IMG/VR virus record: IMGVR_UViG_2690316149_000020
Coordinates: 1-21,247 of that record
DNA from: a virus
Lineage: Duplodnaviria; Heunggongvirae; Uroviricota; Caudoviricetes
Direction: 5' to 3' (one strand)
DNA length: 21,247 nucleotides
The notes beneath the pieces are model-generated. The model ran no database searches. It worked only from the letters and a program-made list of their open reading frames with translations, and was not told the DNA's origin. The translations under genes and the position numbers were made by a program. Of this stretch, positions 5,336 through 18,637 are shown piece by piece (the first letter of the stretch is position 1; every line of letters starts with the position of its first letter).

Positions 5336-6630
5336 TGGCATTAAATGAAGGTCAACTGGTCACGTATGCTCTGGATGAAATCATCGAAACCGTCCAGAAC
5401 CTGACGCCAATGGCGTCCAAAGTGACAAAATACACCCCTCCGGCAGAATCCATGCAGCGTTCAAGCAACACCGTGTGGATGCCTGTTGAGCAGGAAGCGC
5501 CAACCCAGACTGGCTGGGATTTAACTGGCAACGCAACCGGGATTCTGGAACTCTCCGTGAAATGCAACATGGGCGATCCGGATAACGATTTCTTCGAGCT
5601 TCGTGCAGATGACCTGCGTGATGAGCGTTCTTACCGTCGCCGCATCCAGGCATCTGCCAAAAAACTGGCGAATAACATTGAGTCAGCGATTGCCAAACAG
5701 GCAACTGAAATGGGCTCACTTGTTGTTCACGATACCCGCGCAATTGGTCCATCTACTGGCCTGTCTGGCTGGGATTTTGTGTCTGATGCAGAGCGCCTGA
5801 TGTTCTCCCGCGAACTCAACCGCGACATGGGCATCAGTTACTTCCTGAACCCTGACGATTACCGCAAAGCAGGCCGCAACCTGGTAGATGGTGACATCTT
5901 CGGTCGCGTTCCTGAAGAAGCGTATCGCAACGGTACTATTCAGCGTCAGATTGCTGGCTTTGATGAAATTCTTCGCTCACCGAAACTTCCGGCAGTTACC
6001 AAGTCAACCGCTACTGGGGTAACTGTTTCTGGTGAGCAGAAGTTTAAGCCGCAGGCATACACCCTTGATACCGATGGTAACAAAGAGAACGTCGACAACC
6101 GTGTTGCAACGGTGACCGTATCCTCCACCACCGGATTTAAGCGCGGCGACAAAATCAGTTTCACTGGTGTGAAATTCCTGTCTCAGATGGCGAAGAACGT
6201 GCTAACTGATGATGCGACTTTCTCAATCACCCGTGTGATCGATGGTACTCACATCGAAATCACGCCGAAGCCGATTGCACTGGATGACGCGTCACTGACA
6301 AAAGAAGAGAAGGCTTACGCTAACGTAAACACCTCTCTTGCTGATATCACTCCGGTAAACGTTCTGAACGTGGCAACAACCACCGCTAACGTGTTCTGGG
6401 CTGATGACTCAATCCGCCTGCTGTCTCAGCCGATCCCGGTAACCCATGAACTGTTTGCTGGCATGAAAACGTCTTCCTTCAGCATTCCTGGTATTGGTGT
6501 TAACGGCATCTTCGCAACGCAGGGTGATATCAACACTCTGTCTGGTAAGTGCCGTATTGCTGTGTGGTATTCAGCATGTGCTGTACGACCAGAGGCAATT
6601 GGTGTTGGTCTGCCTAACCAGACTGCGTGA
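5335..6630 (+). CDS. major coat protein (P22 gp5-like, 431 aa)
   Basis: Translation matches P22 coat across its length ([20 protein letters not shown]...[34 protein letters not shown]...). TAATG stop/start overlap with the scaffold gene. Confidence 0.95.
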
Positions 6631-6636
6631 TAACCA

Positions 6637-6660
6637 GAGGGAGCTTCGGCTCCCTTTTCT
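6637..6660 (+). terminator. candidate intrinsic terminator/attenuator immediately after the coat gene
   Basis: Inverted repeat AGGGAGC-TTCG-GCTCCCT (7-bp stem, TTCG loop) followed by TTTTCT, starting 7 bp after the coat stop. Confidence 0.6.
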
Positions 6661-6673
6661 ATTGGAGATACCA

Positions 6674-7273
6674 ATGAGCGTAATGATTTTTCAGGCTGGC
6701 GGAGATACCAAAATCTGGGGACGCAAGCTGAAAACGAAAACCGTTGATCCTGATGATGTAGCTGTGCACTTAGCAAATGGCTGGTATAAGCACCCTGACG
6801 ATGTTCCTGATGATCCTCTTGTTGGTGATCAAATTGGGAGTGTTGGCGGAGGTGAAACTTCCCCAGTTGATATGGGCGAAGTGTCCGACGGTTATCACAC
6901 TTTTAACGAGCTTTACGCTCACCGAGTGCGACTCTTCTCATCGCTGATGCATGCTTACGCTGAGCTTTCGTGGTGGTCTCGCAAACACAGTGACGGTGAA
7001 GAGTGGGATGGCTGGATCATTGCTGGTATCACCACTCCAGAAGGCGAAATCACTTATCACCTACCTGTTGAAGAAATCGAGTTCCTTCCTGAAGGTACTG
7101 AGCTTGAGTTCGGGAAAGAGTGGGATGGTCATGAAGCAAATGATGTTCTTGGACGACTCCTGAGTTTGCGTCCGGCTATTGCAGAGCCGGAGTCAGAGCC
7201 AGAAGAAAAACAGCGTAAAAAGCCTGGTCGAAAACCTAAGGCGGCAGCAGATGAACCTGACAACGAAGGGTGA
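6674..7273 (+). CDS. hypothetical protein (199 aa) inserted between coat and gp4; acidic body with a basic C-terminal tail
   Basis: ATG at 6674 preceded by GGAGA five nt upstream. The longer 6494 start from the ORF track lies inside the coat gene in another frame and is rejected. No equivalent gene is recalled between genes 5 and 4 in P22. Confidence 0.6.
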
Positions 7274-7751
7274 TTTAGTTCTTGCGGCATTACGTAAGCT
7301 CGGTGTGGCATCAAATGCCACGTTAACCGATGTCGAACCGCAGTCTATGGAAGATGGCGTCAACGACCTTGAAATGATGATGGCTGAATGGCTTGGCGGT
7401 GATGCGTCACCTGGGATCAACGTTGGCTACATTTTCGCTGATGCAGATGTCGCTCCAGATCCGGGCGATGAGCACGGTTTATCAAATAACGCTATCAATG
7501 CCGTCATTTTCAACCTTGCCTGCCGCATTGCTCCGGATTATGCGCTGGAAGCGTCAGCAAAACTTATAACCACTGCCAGATACGGGAAAGAGCGACTCGT
7601 CAAACTGTCTGCAATGGACAGAGCAAAAGCCGCTAAATGTAAGTCCGGTTATCCAAACCGTATGCCTGTTGGTAGCGGTAACCAGTTGGCGAAGTGGAAC
7701 GGTTGGAATTACTTCCACCGAAAGGAACCTTGCGATAACGGGAGCGAATAA
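7251..7751 (+). CDS. head-tail adaptor / portal-closure protein (P22 gp4-like, 166 aa)
   Basis: From the internal ATG at 7251 the translation ([47 protein letters not shown]...) matches P22 gp4 and gives the expected 166 aa. The upstream part of the ORF-track call is the overlap with the preceding gene. Confidence 0.85.
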
Positions 7752-9169
7752 TGCCGATTCAGCAACTTCCGCTTATGAAAGGTGTCGGCAAAGACTTTCG
7801 AAACGCCGACTATATCGACTATCTGCCAGTTAATATGCTGGCTACACCCAAAGAAATCCTCAACAGCAGCGGATATCTTCGCTCATTCCCGGGCATTGCC
7901 AAACGTTCTGATGTGAACGGTGTATCGCGCGGCGTCGAGTACAACATGGCGCAGAGTGCTGTTTATCGCGTGTGTGGTGGCAAACTGTACAAAGGAGAAA
8001 GCGAGGTTGGTGATGTCGCCGGAAGTGGTCGTGTATCAATGGCGCATGGTCGGACATCACAGGCGGTAGGCGTTAATGGTCAACTGGTCGAGTATCGCTA
8101 TGATGGCACGGTTAAAACCGTCTCAAACTGGCCTACAGACAGCGGATTCACGCAGTATGAGTTAGGTTCTGTTCGTGACATTACGCGCTTACGCGGGCGT
8201 TATGCGTGGTCAAAAGACGGTACTGATTCATGGTTTATCACTGATCTTGAAGACGAATCGCATCCTGACCGTTACAGCGCACAATATCGTGCCGAGTCTC
8301 AGCCGGACGGCATCATCGGTATCGGGACATGGCGAGACTTCATCGTCTGCTTTGGTTCATCGACGATTGAATATTTCTCCCTGACTGGTGCAACCACCGT
8401 TGGTGCTGCTTTGTATGTCGCCCAGCCATCGCTGATGGTGCAGAAAGGCATTGCCGGGACCTACTGCAAAACGCCGTTTGCTGACTCGTATGCGTTCATC
8501 AGCAATCCGGCAACAGGTGCGCCGTCTGTATACATCATCGGCTCCGGTCAGGTATCACCAATCGCCAGCGCGAGCATTGAGAAAATCCTCCGCTCCTACA
8601 CTGCTGATGAACTGGCTGATGGTGTGATGGAATCGCTGCGATTTGATGCGCATGAACTGCTGATTATCCACCTTCCGCGCCACGTCCTCGTGTACGACGC
8701 ATCTTCAAGCGCCAATGGTCCGCAATGGTGTGTACTGAAAACAGGCTTGTATGACGATGTGTACCGCGCTATCGACTTCATTTACGAAGGCAATCAGATA
8801 ACGTGCGGCGATAAGCTGGAATCTGTTACCGGGAAATTGCAGTTCGATATCAGCAGCCAGTACGACAAGCAGCAGGAACACCTGCTGTTTACTCCACTCT
8901 TCAAAGCAGATAACGCCAGAGTTTTCGACCTTGAAGTTGAATCTTCAACTGGCGTTGCGCAGTATGCTGACCGCCTTTTTCTCTCTGCAACCACTGACGG
9001 CATCAATTACGGTCGTGAGCAGATGATTGAGCAGAATGAACCGTTCGTTTACGACAAACGCGTTTTGTGGAAGCGTGTCGGGCGAATCAGGAAAAATGTC
9101 GGCTTCAAATTGCGCGTTATCACGAAGTCACCTGTCACTCTGTCTGGCTGCCAGATAAGGATTGAGTAA
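7751..9169 (+). CDS. tail hub / head-completion protein (P22 gp10-like, 472 aa)
   Basis: 472-aa ORF in the gp10 position with the same length as P22 gp10. ATAATG stop/start overlap with gp4. Confidence 0.85.
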
Positions 9170-9870
9170 TGGCGGATTCATCACTGAATAATCCTGTCGC
9201 GGTTCAGGCTGCGCGCCTTGATGCTTCAATTTTGCCACGCAATATATTCAGCCAGTCTTACCTGCTGTATGTCATAAATCAGGGTGCTGATGTTGGCGCA
9301 ATTGCCGGGAAGGCAAATCAGGCTGGTCAGGGCGCTTACGATGCTCAGGTGAAAAACGATGAACAGGACGTCGAGCTGGCAGATCACGATGCAAGAATCA
9401 CCGCAAACACAAAAGCGATAAATCTCCTTGAGGTCAGGTTAACAACCGCCGAAGGGAAGATAGTCGTACTACGTAGCGATGTTGATTACTTGCTGGATGA
9501 GGTTATCGATATTCAGGCGCATCTGGTCACTGTTGACCAAAGACTGGATGGCGTAGAAAGCGATGTATCTGACATTAAGAGTGATTACGTATCGAAAAAC
9601 GTAACCGAATCGCAGTCTCTTGCGTCACCGCTGGATGTAAAAACATCATATTCAGTTGATGGAATTCAGGTCGTTGGAGCAAGGCAGACCGGATGGACTG
9701 CAGCCACAGGTACGCCACTTCTTGGCTCATTCAACGCTAACCAGTCATACACTGTCGGCACTACGTACACGCAATCCGAAGTCGCAGCTCTCGCTACAGG
9801 TTTGCAGCAGGCGCGGCAGCGTATTCTGGCGCTTGAAACGGCACTTAGATTACATGGGCTGATTGACTGA
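9169..9870 (+). CDS. tail needle (P22 gp26-like, 233 aa)
   Basis: 233 aa. N-terminus [36 protein letters not shown] and C-terminus ...ALRLHGLID match recalled P22 gp26. TAATG overlap with gp10. Confidence 0.85.
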
Positions 9871-10325
9871 TGATTACATTCAAACCAACGCGAAACATCG
9901 ACCTGATAGAAGCAGTCGGAAATCACCCTGACATTATTGCCGGGAGCAACAACGGTGATGGATATGACTACAAACCTGAATGCCGTTACTTTGAGGTGAA
10001 CGTGCACGGGCAGTTCGGCGGAATTGTTTACTATCAGGAGATTCAGCCGCTGACATTCGATTGCCACGCCATGTACCTGCCAGAGGTTCGTGGATTCAGC
10101 AAGGAAATCGGGCTGGCGTTCTGGAGATACATTCTGACTAACACCACTGTTCAGTGTGTCACATCGTTCGCTGCGCGCAAATTCCGCCACGGGCAGATGT
10201 ACTGCGCAATGATTGGCCTTAATCGTGTAGGAACCATCAAGAAATACTTCAAAGGCGTGGATGACGTGACATTTTACAGTGCTACACGCGAAGAACTAAT
10301 CGAATTCCTGAATCACGGGAGATAG
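9870..10325 (+). CDS. virion assembly protein (P22 gp14-position, 151 aa)
   Basis: Positional homolog directly after the tail needle, with an overlapping TGATG junction. Assignment is by gene order and length. Confidence 0.7.
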   Translation: MITFKPTRNIDLIEAVGNHPDIIAGSNNGDGYDYKPECRYFEVNVHGQFGGIVYYQEIQPLTFDCHAMYLPEVRGFSKEIGLAFWRYILTNTTVQCVTSFAARKFRHGQMYCAMIGLNRVGTIKKYFKGVDDVTFYSATREELIEFLNHGR

Positions 10326-10327
10326 CC

Positions 10328-11020
10328 ATGTTATATGCATTTAAGCTGGGCAGAAAACTGCGCGGCGAGGAACCTTATTGCCCTGAAAAAGGCGGGAAAG
10401 GTGGCAGTTCTGATAAAAGCGCAAAGTATGCCGCAGAAGCTCAGAAGTATGCCGCAGACCTGCAAAATCAGCAGTGGCAGACGATCATGAAAAACCTTGC
10501 TCAGTTCACGCCGCTTGCGGAGCAGCATGTTAACCAGCTTCAGAACCTTTCCAGTTTAGAAGGTCAGGGGCAGGCACTTAATCAGTATTACAACTCTCAG
10601 CAGTATAAAGACCTTGCAGGTCAGGCGCGTTACCAGAGTCTTGCTGCTGCGGAGGCGACGGGTGGACTTGGTTCGACAGCCACAAGCAATCAACTGGCTA
10701 CGATCGCGCCGACACTCGGTCAGTCTTGGTTATCAAACCAGATGAGCAATTACAACAATCTGGCAAACGTTGGGCTTGGTGCGCTGCAAGGTCAGGCAAA
10801 CGCCGGGCAGACGTACGCCAACAACATGAGCAGCATTGCACAGCAAAGCGCAGCACTTGCCGCTGCTAATGCCAATAAACCATCAAGTCTTCAGACTGCA
10901 ATTAGCGGTGGCACGTCTGGTGCGATTGCCGGTGCAGGTCTTGCCAGCCTTTTGGGAACATCAACGCCTTGGGGCGCTGGCATTGGTGCTGGAATCGGAT
11001 TGCTTGGCTCGTTGTTTTAA
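10328..11020 (+). CDS. ejection (internal virion) protein, P22 gp7-position (230 aa)
   Basis: Position and length match P22 gp7. The C-terminal half is Gly/Ala/Ser/Gln-rich low-complexity sequence typical of E proteins. Confidence 0.75.
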   Translation: MLYAFKLGRKLRGEEPYCPEKGGKGGSSDKSAKYAAEAQKYAADLQNQQWQTIMKNLAQFTPLAEQHVNQLQNLSSLEGQGQALNQYYNSQQYKDLAGQARYQSLAAAEATGGLGSTATSNQLATIAPTLGQSWLSNQMSNYNNLANVGLGALQGQANAGQTYANNMSSIAQQSAALAAANANKPSSLQTAISGGTSGAIAGAGLASLLGTSTPWGAGIGAGIGLLGSLF

Positions 11021-11029
11021 GGGGTAATC

Positions 11030-12361
11030 ATGGCTACTTGGCAAGGAACAAACGGCGGATTGTTGGCTGGTATCGGCGGCGTCAACTCAAACGCTCCGAG
11101 CGTAAATGACATCGGCAATACGCTTCAGCTTATCAGGCAGAACAATGATATTGAGCGTTCAGGCGCTAACAATGTTGGGCTGACTGCTTTGCAAGGCCTT
11201 TCAGGTATTGCGGGGGTGTTTCAGCAGGAAAAGCAGGCTCAGCGGCAGAAAGAATTTCAGCAGGCATACGCTAATGCTTATGCGTCTGGTGATCGCGGTG
11301 CTTTGCGTCAGTTGGCTACTCAATATCCAGACCAGATTGAATCCGTTCGTAAAGGCATGGGATTCATTGATGAAGACCAGCGTAATTCTATCGGTACATT
11401 AGCGGCTGGCGCACGTCTTGCGTCATCTTCTCCAGAAGCAATGCAATCATGGCTGCAAAACAACGCCGGTGAGTTAGCTCGTGTTGGCGTTAATCCTCAT
11501 GACGTCGCTCAGATGTACCAACAGAACCCGCGGCAGTTCGGCGAATTTGTCGATCACCTGGGGATGAACAGTCTCGGGCCCGAAAAATACTTTGACCTAC
11601 AGGATAAAATGCAGGGTCGCCAGGTTACCATGCGCGGTCAGGATCTGGATTCGCAAACCGCCGCTCGGAATCAGGCAATCACAATGCGCGGACAAGATAT
11701 CCAGGCGAATTTAGGTCAGCAGCGCATTAATCTGGACGCAGAAACAAACCGCATTAACAACGAAAATAAGCGCCTTGACCGGATGCTATCAGCAGAAACT
11801 AACGACCTGAAGCGCCAGGAAATACAGAGCCGCATAGCAGCCAACAACCAGCAGTTGCAGCAGAAGCAGCAAGCGCTAAATGATGGCTACAAAGACGGCA
11901 TCAACACCCTCACAACCAGCATGTTCACTCTGAACGATATCGTTAGTTCTCCTTCACTTAAGAGCATTACAGGCTTACGTGGAGTAATCCCCAACGTTCC
12001 AGGCTCACAGGCTGCAGACACTCAGGCACGACTTGATACCTTTAAATCCCAAGCATACCTGACAGCGGTTCAGGCCATGCGAGGCATGGGCGCACTTTCT
12101 GATGCCGAGGGCAAAAAGCTCGACCAGGCTGTTGGTTCGCTGCAGAACTCGCAGAGCGAGGAGTCCTTTCGTCGCAACGCTGGCGTCATCCTGAACACGC
12201 TCAACCAGAAGCGTAATGAGGCGGTTGGTAAGTACGTTCAGCAAAACGGTATCAAGCGAGTGGAAGCGCCTCAGGCTTCTATAGATTACCTGAAGCAGCA
12301 CCCCGAGCTGTCAATCGACTTCATTAATCGCTACGGATATCTTCCATCTTTGGGGCAGTAA
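11030..12361 (+). CDS. ejection (internal virion) protein, P22 gp20-position (443 aa)
   Basis: Second of three consecutive E-protein ORFs. Gln-rich with coiled-coil-like segments. Assignment is by position. Confidence 0.7.
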   Translation: MATWQGTNGGLLAGIGGVNSNAPSVNDIGNTLQLIRQNNDIERSGANNVGLTALQGLSGIAGVFQQEKQAQRQKEFQQAYANAYASGDRGALRQLATQYPDQIESVRKGMGFIDEDQRNSIGTLAAGARLASSSPEAMQSWLQNNAGELARVGVNPHDVAQMYQQNPRQFGEFVDHLGMNSLGPEKYFDLQDKMQGRQVTMRGQDLDSQTAARNQAITMRGQDIQANLGQQRINLDAETNRINNENKRLDRMLSAETNDLKRQEIQSRIAANNQQLQQKQQALNDGYKDGINTLTTSMFTLNDIVSSPSLKSITGLRGVIPNVPGSQAADTQARLDTFKSQAYLTAVQAMRGMGALSDAEGKKLDQAVGSLQNSQSEESFRRNAGVILNTLNQKRNEAVGKYVQQNGIKRVEAPQASIDYLKQHPELSIDFINRYGYLPSLGQ

Positions 12362-14755
12362 ATGGCTAATTACCGTGATTTGTTAGAGCAGGCTGGCGCA
12401 CGTTACGGTGTGCCAGAAGGGTTGATGACTGCACTGGGTGCCAAGGAGTCTTCTTACAACCCTGCCGCAGTAAGCTCCGCCGGGGCTGTAGGATTGACTC
12501 AGGTCATGCCTGGGACATGGCGTGATATGGGTTATACCGATGAGCAAATGCAAAACCCCGAATATCAGGCTGACGCTGGCGCGCGCTATCTGGCAAAGAT
12601 GTACCAGCAGTTTGGTAACTGGCGTGACGCTCTTCAGGCTTATCACGACGGTCCCGGCAACGTTATGAAGGCAAAGCGTGGTGAATATACGCCAGGACCT
12701 GAAGGCCGCGGTTACGTTGATGATCGCTTTGCTCAATGGGCGGGTGACCCGGTGACAGACTCAACAGTCGAACAGCGCGCCACCTCTGCAAAGGTACATC
12801 CTCAGCAAGACCCTAACAACCCGTTTGCACAACTGGAAGCACAGTCATCCGAACAAGTATCGGCATCAGGCGTGCAGTCAGACCCAAATAATCCATTTGC
12901 TCAGATTGAGCAGCAGGCAGCCAGTCAGCAGCCACCTCAACCCGTAAGTTCTGTCGCACCGAAACCTGTTCAGCAGCAAGGCGGAATAATGTCTGACCTT
13001 GGTAATGGACTTGCTGAAACCGGGCGCGGCTTACTACAGGCAGGAATCAACGTAGCGAACATACCTGCTGAACTCACTGATGCTGTAACAAGCGCGGCGG
13101 CTTGGGCTGGCGGTAAACTCGGCATTGGCGATGGTACATATCAACCAGCACCACGAGTAACAACGCAGGGATTAGAGCGGGACTTTGGCCTTCGGCAAGG
13201 CGCGCTGACTCCACAAACGACAGAGGGAAGGGTATTTGCTGAAGCATTGCCTTACCTCACTCCTGCTGGCGTTGAGAGAGCGGCGGTACAGGCACCAACA
13301 CTTGCTGGTCGAATTGCTCAGGGGGCAACACGACTTCTCGCAGAAAACGCAGTTGGATCACTTGCTGCAAATAGTGCGAAAGATGATGCGGAAGCACTCG
13401 CCACCGATTTAGGCGTTGGTGTACTTGCTGGCGGTGCTATTAACGCTGCTGGACGTGGATTAGGTGCTGCTTATCGTGGCGTTCGTGGTGCTATCGCGCC
13501 AGAAGCGCAGCAGGCCATCAGATTTGCAGAGCGTGAAGGAATTCCTCTGCACACCACAGACCTGTTACAACCAACTTCCCGCGTCGGAAAAATGGCGCAG
13601 ACTACAGCAGAAAATATCCCTCTGGCTGGCACAAGCGGAATGAGAGCAACGCAACAGGAAGCGAGAAGCCAGCTGGTGCAGAGATTTGCCGATAAATTCG
13701 GTGAGTATGATCCAGCGGTTGTTATTGACAGCCTTAAAGCGAAAACATCAGGAATTCGTCGTGCCGCCGGTAATCGACTGGAGCAGGTTCAGAATGCTAT
13801 GGCCGGAGTAAACATTCAGCCTGCGCGAGCAATTCAGCAGATTGATACAGAAATATCTAACCTACAGAAGCTTGGTAAGGTTGCTGATAACGAGACTATT
13901 TCAAAACTTCAGTCATATCGTGATGAGCTTATTCGCAATGCTGGCCCTGATGGTCCTGTAAATCTGGATTTGAAGCAATTAAGCGACCTGCGCAGCCAGT
14001 TCAGAATGGACGTGAAGGGTGAGCGACCAGTGTTACCAAACCGTTCCGATGCTGCAATTCAGCGCGTTTACAAGGCAATGACTGACGATATCAATGGTGC
14101 CATTGGTCAGAATCTTGGCAACGATACTCTCCGTAAATATCAGCAGGCCAATGCCGTCTATGCTGACGAAGCAGCGAAACTCAAGAATACCAGGCTGAAG
14201 AATGTTCTCATGAAAGGCGATCTGACGCCAGAAGTTGTCAACAACATGCTATTCAGCAAGAACAAATCGGAAATTAAGACGTTGTATAACTCAGTTGGTC
14301 GTGTTGGCAGGGCGCAAATGCGCAATGGCATCCTTGGAAAGGCGATGGAGAAATCTGGAGGATCCCCTGACCAGTTCCTTCGGCAGCTTAACATCCTGCA
14401 AAACCAGACTGGCATCACATTTAAGGGGCAGGACGCTGCTTATCTGAAAGGATTAAAAAACTATCTGCAATCCACGCAGCAGGCTGCAAAAGCGGCAGTA
14501 ACAACACCAACAGGGCAGCAAACCATCCCGTTCATTATCGGATATGGGACAGCAATGAACCCGGCGACAACTGGCGCAGCAGTAAGCTATGGACTTCTTA
14601 CTCGCGCCTATGAGAGCGAGCCATTCAGAAATGCAATGCTCCGAATGGCAAACACCCCACGCGGATCAACAGCGTTTGAGAAAGCCATGCAGCAAGCACA
14701 AAAGGCAATTAACGCTATGACGCAGGGGGCTAAGTCTGATGCATTGTCAGAATAG
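12362..14755 (+). CDS. ejection protein in the gp16 position with an N-terminal family-1 lytic transglycosylase (SLT) domain (797 aa)
   Basis: Third E-protein position. N-terminal motifs GAKESSYNP (catalytic Glu-Ser), GLTQVMP and AYHDGPGN follow the SLT pattern. Start is TAAATG, directly after gp20. Confidence 0.75.
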   Translation: MANYRDLLEQAGARYGVPEGLMTALGAKESSYNPAAVSSAGAVGLTQVMPGTWRDMGYTDEQMQNPEYQADAGARYLAKMYQQFGNWRDALQAYHDGPGNVMKAKRGEYTPGPEGRGYVDDRFAQWAGDPVTDSTVEQRATSAKVHPQQDPNNPFAQLEAQSSEQVSASGVQSDPNNPFAQIEQQAASQQPPQPVSSVAPKPVQQQGGIMSDLGNGLAETGRGLLQAGINVANIPAELTDAVTSAAAWAGGKLGIGDGTYQPAPRVTTQGLERDFGLRQGALTPQTTEGRVFAEALPYLTPAGVERAAVQAPTLAGRIAQGATRLLAENAVGSLAANSAKDDAEALATDLGVGVLAGGAINAAGRGLGAAYRGVRGAIAPEAQQAIRFAEREGIPLHTTDLLQPTSRVGKMAQTTAENIPLAGTSGMRATQQEARSQLVQRFADKFGEYDPAVVIDSLKAKTSGIRRAAGNRLEQVQNAMAGVNIQPARAIQQIDTEISNLQKLGKVADNETISKLQSYRDELIRNAGPDGPVNLDLKQLSDLRSQFRMDVKGERPVLPNRSDAAIQRVYKAMTDDINGAIGQNLGNDTLRKYQQANAVYADEAAKLKNTRLKNVLMKGDLTPEVVNNMLFSKNKSEIKTLYNSVGRVGRAQMRNGILGKAMEKSGGSPDQFLRQLNILQNQTGITFKGQDAAYLKGLKNYLQSTQQAAKAAVTTPTGQQTIPFIIGYGTAMNPATTGAAVSYGLLTRAYESEPFRNAMLRMANTPRGSTAFEKAMQQAQKAINAMTQGAKSDALSE

Positions 14756-14845
14756 CTTTTCAAACACCAGGAACGTGCAAAAACCAAATATGTAGAACGC
14801 GAGGTTTATCGTATCTCTCTGCATAGGCGATACCTTTGCTGATTG

Positions 14846-15331
14846 TTATCTGATGTTACTGCTACTGTTGCATGTGACTGTATTTCCAAACCCTGAATTG
14901 CAGTTTGTGTAAGTGTCAACTCGTGTTGGATAGGGTTGAGTTATAACAGGCTGTCTCGCTTTTTGCTCGATCGCTTGCATTGTGTTTACAGCCTGATAAT
15001 TCAATAAAGCCTGCTGGAATGCTTGGCTTTGTGCTATTTGTTGGGCTTGTTCTTGGCTTTGTAATTGAACATAAAGATTCTGAAGCTCAAGTCTTGCCTG
15101 TGCGTCACTTATCTTGCCTTCATCGACACTTTGCCCGAGCATCTTTGCAGCAAGGACATACAGCTTAGGTGTTGGTGCTGATGCCATGCGTGAGTCGTTC
15201 TTCACGCTGGCATCAAGGCAATTAGCCATATCGCTAAGCTTTTGATAGCGTTGTTCGCAACTTGCTTGATAGTCACTTACTTTTGCGCACCCAACCAGCA
15301 GAAGCGGGATAATTAACAGTGATTTTTTCAT
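14846..15331 (-). CDS. predicted lipoprotein (161 aa), function unknown; candidate lysogeny-expressed exclusion or conversion factor
   Basis: Internal ATG at 15329-15331 (minus) is preceded by AAGGAG about 10 nt upstream. Signal peptide MKKSLLIIPLLLVGC has lipobox LVGC, and Ala at +2 predicts outer-membrane sorting. Gln-rich mature region with several Cys. The ORF-track start at 15367 lacks an RBS. Confidence 0.65.
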   Translation of the reverse strand: MKKSLLIIPLLLVGCAKVSDYQASCEQRYQKLSDMANCLDASVKNDSRMASAPTPKLYVLAAKMLGQSVDEGKISDAQARLELQNLYVQLQSQEQAQQIAQSQAFQQALLNYQAVNTMQAIEQKARQPVITQPYPTRVDTYTNCNSGFGNTVTCNSSSNIR

Positions 15332-15401
15332 ATGGTTAACTCTCCTTAGTTTTTCACAGGATATCATGAAGGCAATGCCATTTTAGCCGGAAACTAGATT
15401 T

Positions 15402-15668
15402 CTATGTTCCCTTTTTATTATTGCTATACATGGTCTTAAGCGTTTCAAAAACCATTTTCTTAACCATATCAGATTGTTGTTCTGCTATACGCTCTGCATC
15501 GTCAATGTAAACTGATGCAGAGCTTTGTTTAGCCAATGATTCTTCAATCGCTGCAATTATCTCTGAGTTCAGCGACCTGTTATTCATCTTCGCACGCTGC
15601 TTAATTTTCGCGTGGAGTTCATGCGGAAGTCTCAAGTGAAACTGCGCCTCGTCGTATTTGCTGTACAT
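15402..15668 (-). CDS. mnt: Mnt-like ribbon-helix-helix (Arc/MetJ family) repressor (88 aa)
   Basis: C-terminal segment DDAERIAEQQSDMVKKMVFETLKTMY closely resembles the P22 Mnt tetramerisation region. An RHH core (QFHLRLPHELHAKIKQRAKMNNRSLNSEIIAAIEESL) precedes it. Start taken at the internal ATG (15666-15668) to give an Mnt-like length. Confidence 0.8.
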   Translation of the reverse strand: MYSKYDEAQFHLRLPHELHAKIKQRAKMNNRSLNSEIIAAIEESLAKQSSASVYIDDAERIAEQQSDMVKKMVFETLKTMYSNNKKGT

Positions 15669-15741
15669 CCTTGATGCCTCACCAGTTGGGTGGAATGGCA
15701 TCGTAACTTACTGGATAAATACTCAATAGTACCATTTCGGT

Positions 15742-15799: not shown

Positions 15800-16339
15800 T
15801 CACCTACCATGATTCTCATGATAACCATAGGTCTTTTCAGCCTCACGCCTTACAGCAATTGCATCATCGAGACTCTTAAAGTATCCGAGATTAATGCGCT
15901 TCCCTGCGTCGCTAATATATGCCACCCACTTTTTATGGGTCTTATGCCATGAAACACCTGCGCACCCAGATGTATTGTTTGTGTATTTAGATTTGTTTTT
16001 TAGATTTTCACCGAGACTAACTAGACGCAGGTTGTCTATTGAATTATTTAACCCATTACCATCTTTATGGTCAATTTGCATTCCTGAAGGGATTTCACCA
16101 TAAAACATTTCCCATATTATCCTATGGGCGGCGTATATTTTATCTTGATACCTGATAATTATATAAGATGTTTTCCTGTTCTTGTCCTTGAATATATGTC
16201 CTGCAGGCTTTTCTTTAGATATATTGAACATTTTGGGTCTTGAAAGATATTGGTCACTCCAGTACAGGAGTCCATCGTCTTTTAATACGAATACTTCGTT
16301 CCAGTTCATGTTAACCACCTTTAAATAAAGTTCACTCAT
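15800..16339 (-). CDS. HNH homing-type endonuclease with C-terminal AP2 DNA-binding domain (179 aa; possibly 169 aa from the ATG at 16309)
   Basis: HNH_3 motif [28 protein letters not shown], followed by an AP2-like segment [45 protein letters not shown]. Visibly AT-rich. The alternative start at 16309 has an AAGGTGG Shine-Dalgarno 5 nt upstream. Confidence 0.8.
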
Positions 16340-16396
16340 TATACAAAAAACATGCTAGCAATGAATATTGCTTGCTTAACATATAGAGAAATTAAA

Positions 16397-18637
16397 ATGA
16401 CAGATTCAATAAATGCCAATGTTGTGGTAAGCATGCCTTCGCAACTCTTCACTATGGCTCGTTCTTTTAAAGCCGTAGCCAATGGAAAAATTTATATCGG
16501 TAAAATTGACACTGACCCGGTAAACCCTGAAAACCAGATTCAGGTTTATGTGGAGAACGAAGACGGCTCTCACGTTCCTGTTTCTCAACCAATAATCATT
16601 AACGCTGCTGGATATCCGGTATATAACGGACAGATTGCCAAATTCGTAACCGTGCAAGGCCATTCTATGGCTGTTTATGATGCGTATGGTGCGCAGCAGT
16701 TCTATTTTTCGAATGTGCTGAAGTATGACCCTGACCAACTCAGGCAAGATCTTGCATCTCAAGGAGGTGTTAATCTGGTAAACGGAGCTATCTCACAGGA
16801 AGATCTTGTTTTGCAGTCGATCACAAAAATTCCAAGTTATGATAATTCTAACGTAGTCCAGGCGTGGCGCGATAGTGTTGCGACCTACGGGTATGTTTAC
16901 TTCTCTAATCATTCAAAAAATCAGATGGTGTACACCGTACCGTCTACAGCTGCTAACGCTTCTTTCCTTGCGAACAGTAAAGTAATCATTGATAAAAATG
17001 TCACCCTGAGATTCGACAGTGATCTGTACTCACTGTTTAAATCGTTGCAGTACGAGGGGGAGGGTACGTTTGAATTTACGCACCTGAACTTTAAAGCAAC
17101 CGGTGGAGAAGTGGATTATCTGGCTAAGCAGGCCATCCTCAACCGAAACCCTATTCGCATGAAGCGAGTGGAATGGTCAGATTGTAAAGTTTATTCCATA
17201 AATGGTGACACGTTCTTCTATGAAGGTGAAGTCACCATATCCTCAGATAGCGCAGCTATCTTCCCCTTAACTACTGACCGTACAACAGGCCTGTTCGCAC
17301 CAATAGATATTGGAGAGCATATTTCTGCACATATTCGTATGGAATCTCAGGCCGCCTCAGAAGTTGGGATTGTTCTGCGATGCTCTGGTGGTTGGATGAT
17401 GTTCTATGGGGCACCAGGTGCTACACAGTGGTCTTATAGACAGAAACCAATTGGTGGTCCAGTAGCAGAAGGAACTCCATTCCCGCTGCCAGGAGGTTTA
17501 CTGTCGTACGCCCCGGGCAAAGCAACCGTTGGCGTATCACTGCAAGGTAAAAACTGGGCGCAGATAACGATGAATGGCGTTGGGATACGTTTGCCCTTTG
17601 ATACTGCTGATGTAGGGGATGTATACGAAGTTGGGTTTGTTGCACTGACCACGGCATCTGGAGGTTCTGCGCGTGTAACTGGATTATGCAGCTACACCTC
17701 TGATAATGGCGTGCACGGTAAGCCTCCACTTAATATCCTTATCCACGGTGATAGTACAGCTGAGGATTTCATTTCCGCGTTCAGCTCGTACATTCCGCAA
17801 TTAATGGATGGAGCGAACGGCCACCGTTCACATAGCATTGTAAACAAGGCAGTTGCCGGACAGACAATGAGGCAACAGTTAGATCTCCTGAAGGCTCAGG
17901 GGCCGGGTGATGCTTACATCGTTATTATGGTTGCCGGAACTAACGAAGGGCAGGCAAACCAAAACGGCGATTATATGGCGTCATTGATAGATGAGTTTGT
18001 CTTATATTGCAATGGCCTTGGTCGTATCCCTGTTTGGGTTGAGCCGTGGATGTGGTATAGCCAGTCATTTATTGGAGGGGCTGGCCAGCCATCTTCTAAC
18101 TACGACGGTGTCGCAGAGTTGCGAGAAGCTGGTAAACGCCAGATGATGAAATATGGCAATAACGTCATTTGTGTAACAACAACTCACCAGCTCCCGGCCC
18201 CATATCCAGAGTATTTCAACACGCAATACGACCCACTTCTGCGTGATGACATTCACCAAAGCCAGTTAGGGTATCGTCTGTATGCGGAAATTATCTGCTC
18301 TGCCATTATCGACTGGTGGTCGCGTGTTGATTACACGCCAAGAGCAGCTGTTCAATGGTGGGCTGGAACAAACGTAACAGTACAGGCACCGTCAAGTTTA
18401 ACTGCCAATTCAATTAATATTAAACTGGCAGCCACTTCATTTGCGAATGGCAATACTGTTCTAACGCTTCCGAGGTGGTGCAGACCAAAAGTAACCAAAA
18501 ATGTCCCTGTACCGTTCACTGCTGATGGCGTTTCATTTGGCATGGCAATGGCCACCATTAATGCTTCAACAGGACAAATATCGATTGAAGGGTCCACCAC
18601 TACATCTCCAACGTTCTACATAGATGCGACATGGTAG
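16397..18637 (+). CDS. tailspike: P22 gp9-type head-binding N-terminal domain fused to a distal region with an SGNH/GDSL hydrolase (esterase) domain (746 aa)
   Basis: Start at the ATG giving [18 protein letters not shown]...[26 protein letters not shown]...VLKYDPDQ, the conserved P22 gp9 N-terminus. The ORF-track start at 16352 adds 15 non-homologous residues. SGNH blocks in order: [27 protein letters not shown]. Confidence 0.85.

Follow-up and report, generated by a model that had tools for sequence, protein, structure and literature searches.

In phage P22, the ejection protein gp16 is carried in virions, released before the DNA and required for DNA delivery (PMC8402733, PMC10461980), with about 12 molecules being ejected (PMC8402733). 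In T7 gp16, also termed internal virion protein D (IVP-D), residue E37 of the lytic transglycosylase (LT) domain has been named as catalytic, an extended segment described as a "molecular tape" follows this domain, and the domain is needed for genome entry if the peptidoglycan is highly cross-linked (PMC8954989). T7 IVP-D and P22 gp16 have been described as alternatives that never occur together in one phage (Hardies 2016, PMC4819975), and a 2022 review states that P22-like phages lack the transglycosylase function of gp16 (PMC8954989). A review table gives P22 gp4 as the virion-associated lysin of that phage (PMC5380687).

The window analysed here, a stretch of 21,247 nucleotides from the viral record IMGVR_UViG_2690316149_000020, encodes a protein of 797 aa in which an SLT domain is followed by a linker and by a P22-gp16-family body. 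Judging from its motifs and modelled fold, this ejection protein begins with an apparently intact lytic transglycosylase domain.

Gene Order of the Ejection Cluster

The third ejection protein gene (12362-14755, plus strand) was delimited from the list of open reading frames and its translation. ORFs upstream of position 12362 matched DUF2824 (P22 gp14 family), P22_gp7 (PF25688, E=2.6e-132), corresponding to a gp7 homologue and first ejection protein (10328-11020, plus strand), and Inj_translocase of the P22 gp20 family (PF16928, E=6.3e-68), corresponding to a gp20 homologue of 443 aa (11030-12361, plus strand). A downstream ORF (16352-18637) carries a P22 head-binding tailspike domain. The resulting order, gp14-gp7-gp20-gp16-tailspike, is colinear with that of phages P22, Sf6, and Sf101, and puts the 797-aa protein between gp20 and the tailspike, where a P22-like late operon has its member of the P22 gp16 family. 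The gp16 position that a sequence-only reading of this DNA had assigned to the protein is therefore borne out by its neighbours on both sides. The window also encodes a homologue of the tail adaptor gp4 (7179-7751, plus strand; PF11650, E=1.6e-58) that is 60% identical to P22 gp4; the alignment begins at query aa 25, an internal Met that is probably the genuine start. A minus-strand ORF (12383-12736, 117 aa, TTG start) was set aside, given the strong Pfam match and the dN/dS of about 0.04 in the plus frame.

The N-Terminal Lytic Transglycosylase Domain

Residues 1-125 (12362-12736, plus strand) form a lytic transglycosylase (SLT, GH23-like) domain, as indicated by Pfam, a match to E. coli Slt70, an AF2 model, Foldseek, and dN/dS. 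Pfam SLT (PF01464) matched aa 7-110 with E=2.9e-25 and 88.6 bits against a cutoff of 21.3, which is far beyond chance. The sequence-only reading had proposed an N-terminal family-1 lytic transglycosylase within 12362-12700 (aa 1-113), an interval that spans the Pfam match, with the fold reaching slightly further, to about aa 125; the three motifs on which it relied were all found in the translation. The first, GAKESSYNP (aa 26-34), contains the E29-S30 codons (motif I, 12446-12451, plus strand; E29 at 12446-12448), which encode the predicted catalytic Glu and the next Ser. When aligned, E29 stands opposite the catalytic Glu of Slt70 (E478) and of T7 gp16 (E37), and the modelled fold agrees with the same family assignment. 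Neither E29 nor S30 varied among the 58 diverse SLT proteins of alignment A4 or among 26 distinct gp16-SLT variants.

The other two signatures of family-1 lytic transglycosylases, GLTQ (aa 44-47) and AYHDG (aa 93-97), were also present. Within motif II, GLTQVMP (aa 44-50; 12491-12511, plus strand), G44 and Q47 are invariant in A4; two of the 26 distinct gp16-SLT variants have G instead of Q47, and some Cronobacter-named proteins read GLTGVMP. Within motif III, AYHDGPGN (aa 93-100; 12638-12661, plus strand), A93, Y94, and G97 are invariant in A4, and H95-D96 stand where A4 usually has N-A, AYHDG itself being invariant across the gp16-SLT clade. Across the 26 variants, E29, S30, Y76, and A93-G97 are constant and 44 of the 125 positions vary, and the dN/dS of the domain (0.036-0.045) shows that it is under strong purifying selection. 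Block-mean pLDDT of the AF2 model was 90-98 at aa 1-110, and 79 and 71 over aa 111-130. When this model was compared with the PDB by Foldseek, the top matches were LtgA, Slt70, and Slt, all top matches being lytic transglycosylases with a probability of 1.00, and the predicted structure has the goose-lysozyme-like alpha-helical fold.

The P22-gp16-Family Body

The remainder of the protein after the linker (aa 207-797; 12980-14755, plus strand) is predicted to be all-alpha and is 96.6% identical to aa 76-665 of Sf6 gp13. Homology to the P22 gp16 family was found by BLASTP against P22 gp16 itself (35% identity, E=1e-76, aa 314-783), by phrog_770 "DNA transfer protein" (aa 108-797, E=1.5e-239), and by PF26808 (Phage_P22_gp16), which is precomputed together with PF01464 on proteins 98-99% identical to the 797-aa protein. 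A hydropathy scan gave no clear transmembrane helix, its only hit being a weakly hydrophobic stretch at about aa 342-370. The full-length AF2 model, built with 24 homologues, reached a mean pLDDT of only 44.9 and a pTM of 0.27, a confidence that allows the body to be called predicted helical but is too low to place the SLT domain relative to it. NCBIfam holds no model for the gp16 body, so the RefSeq name of SLT-less proteins is not derived from such a model. Proteins with other N-termini on the same body (P0111, P0115, and P0116) were considered as evidence of swappable modules and rejected, as these N-termini are parts of the gp26 needle, gp7, and NinG; such a pattern is suggestive of genes fused by deletion in decaying prophages or in assemblies.

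Linker and Mosaic Junction

The SLT domain and the body are connected by a linker rich in Q, P, A, and S (aa 126-206; 12737-12979, plus strand), recognised by its composition and low pLDDT: Q, P, S, A, or N make up 60% of its residues, and block-mean pLDDT was 56-72 over aa 121-215. The sequence DPNNPFAQ(L/I)E is duplicated in the linker, at aa 150 and aa 174, at the protein level only, Tandem Repeats Finder detecting no DNA-level tandem repeat there. The dN/dS of the linker, 0.138, is above that of the SLT domain.

The 797-aa protein is a mosaic, in which a cassette is joined to the body at CAGCAGCAA, encoding QQQ (12974-12982, plus strand), where similarity to phage Sf101 stops and similarity to Sf6 resumes. 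This junction was placed by BLASTN segments, with Sf101 matching 9870-12979 and Sf6 matching 9870-11566 and 12974-14826, and by a three-way DNA alignment. The cassette common with Sf101 comprises the C-terminal part of gp20 (from about nt 11567), the SLT domain, and the Q/P-rich linker. Identity of 97-100% over the gp20 C-terminal part was confined to phages with the SLT module; in 66 of the 71 matching E. coli genomes the two form one contiguous stretch, and the same pairing occurs in Cronobacter and K. aerogenes prophages. It is conceivable, if rather doubtful, that the gp20 C-terminal part and the SLT-linker form a co-adapted interaction module, a P22-like counterpart of the periplasmic tunnel that T7 builds from gp15-C and gp16-N. 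If so, there would be two interchangeable designs of P22-like periplasmic conduit, with and without a wall cutter, swapped as a single cassette onto different gp16 bodies. The proposal stays speculative because the linkage does not reach phages Skarpretter and Kc259, in which gp20 identity is down to about 27%.

Distribution and Previous Annotation

More than 100 prophage protein clusters are 72-99% identical to the 797-aa protein, most of them named "lytic transglycosylase domain-containing protein"; the closest (P0001-P0035), RefSeq entries from E. coli prophages, are 98-99% identical over the full length. The SLT module is present in 70 of 5426 complete E. coli genomes (about 1.3%) and in seven isolated phages, including Sf101, Huey, Dewey, phiKp_30, and APC_JM3.2. 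Phage IME10 has the same uninterrupted 797-aa ORF at 97.6% DNA identity, left unannotated in the IME10 records, and the Sf101 homologue is labelled "transglycosylase" in GenBank. Orthologues at 76-80% identity retain the architecture, and prophages of Cronobacter and K. aerogenes, as well as phages Skarpretter and Kc259, share the N-terminal placement of the SLT domain. An SLT-bearing third ejection protein is thus already known, near-identical proteins being so labelled in public databases, and the finding is correct and fairly ordinary. Its value lies in a correction to the literature and in a clean experimental handle, not in a new kind of system.

Proposed Role in DNA Delivery and Alternative Explanations

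The 797-aa protein is likely a DNA-ejection protein of the P22 gp16 family whose SLT domain would cut the wall locally during DNA delivery. By homology with Sf6 gp13 and P22 gp16, it would be packaged in the capsid and, as infection begins, would precede the DNA out through the portal and tail channel. The N-terminal domain would then fold in the periplasm and cut the MurNAc-GlcNAc bond of the peptidoglycan, with E29 as the putative acid catalyst, opening a local hole for a trans-envelope conduit of gp7, gp20, and gp16, while the alpha-helical body would perform the conserved gp16 job. The activity is probably accessory, since many close relatives lack the domain, and by analogy with T7 it may matter most in a highly cross-linked wall. 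It is also probably not essential to the basic mechanism, as Sf6, P22, and many close relatives infect without it. Activity cannot be taken for granted, given AYHDG in place of AYNAG and the Q47G change in some Cronobacter variants. The searchable literature yielded neither biochemical nor virion-proteomic evidence on the 797-aa protein or any P22-like homologue.

The relationship of this domain to gp4 bears directly on the suggestion, made in the sequence-only reading, that the ejection apparatus digests peptidoglycan itself instead of depending on a different virion protein. The gp4 adaptor sits in the neck, badly placed for reaching the wall, which would favour the SLT domain as a replacement for gp4 and as the only peptidoglycan-degrading activity of the virion. 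The canonical muralytic fold with its intact motifs points the same way, and the lysin assignment of P22 gp4 comes from its listing in one review table (PMC5380687). However, the window retains its gp4 homologue, and the SLT-bearing prophages of Cronobacter and K. aerogenes also retain PF11650 proteins; replacement therefore appears unlikely, and this part of the earlier suggestion is unsupported. With gp4 kept and its P22 homologue listed as a lysin, the SLT domain is an addition rather than a demonstrated replacement, with the qualification that an essential structural adaptor such as gp4 would be kept whether or not it had a muralytic role. Another explanation would make the domain mainly a peptidoglycan-binding anchor, tethered by its long flexible linker and docking the conduit to the sacculus, with catalysis dispensable or lost. 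The off-consensus H95-D96 of motif III and the Q47G homologues are compatible with this, but strict conservation of E29-S30 and the other motif residues (Q47 excepted) under strong purifying selection would be unnecessary for mere binding, and we regard a mainly anchoring role as quite improbable.

Local wall cutting at entry is likewise preferred to a late role as an auxiliary lysin in cell lysis. SLT domains can be endolysins, and phrog_669 "endolysin" appeared among the weaker matches, but here the domain is covalently joined to a body nearly identical to that of the Sf6 gp16 homologue, P22 gp16 leaves the virion at infection (PMC8402733), the gene lies within the ejection-protein cluster, and the holin and endolysin of P22 are encoded elsewhere in its genome; a function in lysis is accordingly very hard to credit. 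That the N-terminal SLT might be an artefact, either a separate small transglycosylase gene joined to gp16 through faulty sequencing or assembly or a remnant of decay in a defective prophage, is suggested by the aberrant gp26, gp7, and NinG fusions to the same gp16 body in the protein database, but is effectively refuted by the uninterrupted ORF of IME10, by the presence of the architecture in more than 35 independent protein clusters and 66-70 complete E. coli genomes, by its persistence in the orthologues diverged to 76-80% identity, and by the isolated phages that carry the module (Sf101, Huey, Dewey, phiKp_30, and APC_JM3.2).

Comparison with Known Systems

Among P22-like phages, Sf6 gp13 and P22 gp16 share the homologous body and the equal gene position with the 797-aa protein, but neither gave an SLT match, which upholds the domain-level difference from P22 noted in the sequence-only reading. 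Where the 206-aa SLT-linker sits here, about 75 residues of unrelated sequence are found in Sf6 gp13. Conversely, Sf101 gp13 is 100% identical over aa 1-206 and carries this same SLT-linker on a different body of 911 aa, which BLASTP cannot align with the body described here. A T7-style wall-cutting domain on gp16 does occur in a sizeable minority of P22-like phages, and the contrary statement in the 2022 review (PMC8954989) needs correcting. IME10 and this window, which bear the SLT domain, and Sf6, which lacks it, share a body at 96.6% identity and offer a ready-made pair for testing a virion-borne transglycosylase.

More distant relatives are Skarprettervirus gp17 (977 aa) and the "lytic transglycosylase" of Kosakonia phage Kc259 (1038 aa), whose near-N-terminal SLT domains are 55-58% identical. 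Their gene order, gp4-gp10-needle-gp14-gp7-gp20-SLT protein-tailspike, is shared, whereas their SLT domain is preceded by an extension of 27-35 aa and their bodies are longer and only partly related. Outside phages, E. coli Slt70 (family 1A) is the best sequence match of solved structure (1qsa, E=4.5e-10), with its E-S, GLxQ, and AYxxG motifs aligned with those of the SLT domain and a query-normalised Foldseek TM-score of about 0.51. Slt70 serves a housekeeping function in the periplasm and possesses a signal peptide and large superhelical domains; in its 618 aa the matching catalytic domain is C-terminal (residues ~450-595), whereas here the catalytic domain alone is found on an ejection protein.

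The analogy with T7 gp16 drawn in the earlier reading holds for the N-terminal region. Each is the last protein of its ejection cluster and opens with an SLT domain; the two domains are 28% identical (E=1e-10), with T7 E37 opposite E29, a profile comparison with T7 gp16 in the PDB gave E=2e-17, and the T7 structures 7k5c, 7eyb, and 9jyy were among the matches of the predicted fold. A linker follows the SLT domain here, as the "molecular tape" follows the LT domain in T7 gp16. In the T7 tunnel, the LT domains decorate the tunnel and the tape stabilises it. The proteins differ in size (797 aa against 1318 aa in T7), and the body shows no similarity to the remainder of T7 gp16 (best BLASTP E=1.9), phrog_342 matching aa 3-189 only; the N-terminal LT domain of the T7 IVP-D family is present, but not its large C-terminal homology. 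By this comparison, the 797-aa protein would work like the N-terminal part of T7 gp16 while belonging outside the T7 gp16 family.

Lytic Transglycosylase Domain of the Third Ejection Protein

The phage is P22-like and belongs to the genus Lederbergvirus, and the window spans its late (virion) region. Among the collection phages, coliphage IME10 is closest, with 97.6% DNA identity across 87% of a query of 6 kb. The gene in the gp16 position, defined by ORF and translation, encodes a third ejection protein of 797 aa (12362-14755, +); matches to DUF2824 (P22 gp14 family), P22_gp7, and Inj_translocase (P22 gp20 family) lie upstream, and a tailspike gene with the P22 head-binding domain lies downstream. 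The sequence-only reading had placed a transglycosylase signature at 12362-12700, where it was indeed found, with its three motifs present in the translation (GAKESSYNP, aa 26-34; GLTQVMP, aa 44-50; AYHDGPGN, aa 93-100). Its family-1 lytic transglycosylase call agrees with the Pfam SLT profile (PF01464), matched by aa 7-110 (E=2.9e-25; 88.6 bits, cutoff 21.3). The top solved-structure match by sequence was E. coli Slt70 (E=4.5e-10), and the proposed catalytic Glu, E29, aligned opposite E478 of Slt70 and E37 of T7 gp16, the latter described in a review as catalytic (PMC8954989). By BLASTP, T7 gp16 is 28% identical to the 797-aa protein (E=1e-10), again with E37 opposite E29; a profile built from 58 diverse small SLT proteins recovered T7 gp16 residues 5-144 in the PDB (E=2e-17), and hhalign of the SLT profile against T7 gp16 gave a probability of 98.3%.

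In the 58-sequence alignment, the invariant columns E29, S30, G44, Q47, Y76, A93, Y94, and G97 were identified, the sole consensus departure being H95-D96 instead of N-A. AlphaFold2 modeling of aa 1-215 yielded block-mean pLDDT values of 90-98 for aa 1-110 and 56-72 for the linker blocks; every top Foldseek match of this model in the PDB was a lytic transglycosylase (LtgA, Slt70, Slt, MltE, MltC), and T7 gp16 structures were also among the matches. Homologous proteins supplied 26 distinct SLT variants; of the 125 positions, 44 varied among them while E29, S30, Y76, and A93-G97 remained constant, and dN/dS of the domain was 0.045 against a Cronobacter orthologue and 0.036 against one from Klebsiella aerogenes. 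Given these profile, alignment, fold-model, variant, and dN/dS results, the domain looks intact and under purifying selection; its identification is correct, with good support from sequence, fold, and evolution. A subset of Cronobacter homologues, including database clusters P0055, P0058, and P0061, have motif II as GLTGVMP (Q47G) in an otherwise conserved domain; since Q47 is invariant in the 58 diverse SLT proteins, these variants may be altered in substrate binding or activity.

Linker and gp16-Family Body

The domain is followed by a Q/P/A/S-rich linker (aa 126-206; 60% of residues of these types), in which the motif DPNNPFAQ(L/I)E occurs twice (aa 150 and aa 174), and by a P22-gp16-family body (aa 207-797; phrog_770, 'DNA transfer protein', E=1.5e-239). 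The results show a gp16-family ejection protein to which a conserved, intact SLT domain is joined via a flexible linker; in near-identical proteins from the databases, PF01464 and PF26808 (Phage_P22_gp16) are precomputed together as Pfam matches. The body is 96.6% identical to aa 76-665 of Sf6 gp13 and 35% identical to P22 gp16 (E=1e-76). The domain-level difference from P22 that had been proposed is real, since no SLT match was found in P22 gp16 (609 aa) or Sf6 gp13 (665 aa).

Variants of this architecture were also observed. Clusters P0098 (886 aa) and P0105 (880 aa) carry between linker and body an extra domain of ~100 aa (KGLIQEGNIDIHNRP...LHNQQADEYL) without a Pfam match. In other proteins, the N-terminal part of needle gp26 (P0111), gp7 (P0115, P0118, P0120), or NinG (P0116) is fused to the gp16 body. 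For gp26 and gp7, the fusion point is the same Q-rich junction as for the SLT-linker or close to it; for NinG, it lies upstream, close to where the Sf6-type gp16 N-terminus begins. These proteins probably arose by deletion in decaying prophages or as chimeras of assembly.

Mosaic Cassette

Comparison with Sf6 showed matches at 9870-11566 and 12974-14826 (~94%), and the divergent block between them (11567-12973) covers the gp20 C-terminal part, which starts at ~aa 180, together with gp16 aa 1-204. Its downstream junction is a microhomology, CAGCAGCAA (QQQ). Sf101 is colinear with the window over 9870-12979 (97.8%), with no similarity beyond; the same SLT-linker is joined there at the identical point but onto a different body of 911 aa. 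The six phages with at least 97% identity in the gp20 C-terminus are the same phages in which the SLT module is at least 99% identical, and in complete E. coli genomes a joint gp20-C/SLT query was covered to at least 80% in 66 of the 71 matching genomes. The pairing is kept in Cronobacter (gp20-C 99.6%, SLT 96.8%, body 76%) and K. aerogenes (73.7%, 83%, and 77%), whereas the gp20 proteins of the more distant Skarpretter and Kc259 phages are only ~27% identical. The gp20 C-terminal type and the SLT module thus travel together, for which adjacency alone could be a sufficient explanation. A separate patch, Sf101 gp13 aa 221-353 (locus L001) against P22 gp16 aa 53-189 (locus L009), is 81% identical in otherwise divergent proteins, a further intragenic mosaic segment of the gp16 family.

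Distribution and Annotation

The exact SLT module was found in seven collection phages, IME10, phiKp_30, APC_JM3.2, Sf101, Huey, Dewey, and ECO26.1 3-1 (fragment), and in 70 of 5426 complete E. coli genomes under the PGAP name 'lytic transglycosylase domain-containing protein'; the Sf6-type body was found in 336 genomes. The architecture is shared by more than 100 clusters of proteins, 72-99% identical, found in E. coli, Cronobacter, K. aerogenes, Kosakonia, and Enterobacter, and most of the named clusters bear that PGAP name too. Skarprettervirus and Kosakonia phages have a 55-58% identical SLT domain near the N-terminus of the same-position protein. The finding is already recognised in public annotation. 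The Sf101 record (KJ832078) names its homologue 'transglycosylase', which the Sf101 paper (PMC4159516) leaves undiscussed, and the intact 797-aa ORF of IME10 (5363-7756, locus L002) is unannotated in NC_019501, JN600960, and JF974339. SLT-less Sf6-type gp16 proteins with PF26808 only, such as P0117 and P0119 (665 aa) and vse13_013 of VSe13 (locus L004, 3826-5823), also carry the NCBI domain name, and PHROG 29864 ('transglycosylase') matches the body only (aa 295-516). Homologues without the domain seem to have acquired the name from the fused proteins.

Other Genes of the Window

A WDGH-domain ORF (6494-7273, +; PF25311; phrog_3769, unknown function) sits between the coat gene and gp4, where P22 has only the small orf69, and its product may be an extra virion or decoration protein. 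In the position of P22 sieA, a predicted lipoprotein gene (14846-15367, -; lipobox in MKKSLLIIPLLLVGC, read from an internal Met) matches phrog_6067 (unknown function); its product showed no similarity to P22 SieA and no PADLOC match, and could serve a different prophage-expressed exclusion or moron function. A Mnt/Arc-type ribbon-helix-helix repressor (15402-15701, -; Pfam Arc and Repressor_Mnt) is called 'partition protein ATPase' in PHROG and RefSeq, apparently a misnomer. Between this mnt-like repressor and the tailspike lies an HNH homing-endonuclease gene (15800-16339, -; HNH_3, weak AP2 match, PADLOC HEase); IME10 and Sf101 have no match to 15805-16351, and in a relative from K. aerogenes a further HNH gene separates gp10 from the needle gene.

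Putative Role and Comparison with Known Systems

The P22 virion contains ~12 gp16 molecules, which leave before the DNA and help form a trans-periplasmic conduit (PMC8402733, PMC10461980). After ejection, the N-terminal domain would fold in the periplasm and, using E29 as acid catalyst, make local cuts in the glycan strands that could widen the sacculus pore for the conduit. Since the near-identical body of Sf6 comes without the domain, such a function would be of conditional benefit and not essential. The further suggestion that the apparatus does this rather than relying on another virion protein was not supported, as a homologue of gp4 is retained in the window. It shares 60% identity with P22 gp4, which is listed as the virion-associated lysin of P22 (PMC5380687); its retention would be expected in either case, since gp4 is a structural adaptor.

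Within the library searched, no paper was found that describes or tests the SLT domain in a P22-like phage. Modestly new are the cassette structure, in which gp20 C-terminus, SLT domain, and linker are swapped together and meet different gp16 bodies at the QQQ junction, the contradiction of the published generalisation that this gp16 function is absent from P22-like phages (PMC8954989), and the natural SLT-plus/SLT-minus pairs, whose near-identical bodies would allow an easy test of what the domain does. In T7, genome entry through highly cross-linked peptidoglycan requires the N-terminal transglycosylase of gp16 (PMC8954989). The likeness to T7 gp16 stood for the N-terminal SLT domain and its position, the only features in common; it failed for the body, which showed no similarity to the rest of T7 gp16 (best E=1.9). 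A muralytic domain on a podovirus ejection protein is of a known kind, and the 797-aa protein is an instance of the general movement of muralytic domains among internal virion proteins across podoviruses described by Hardies et al. (PMC4819975).
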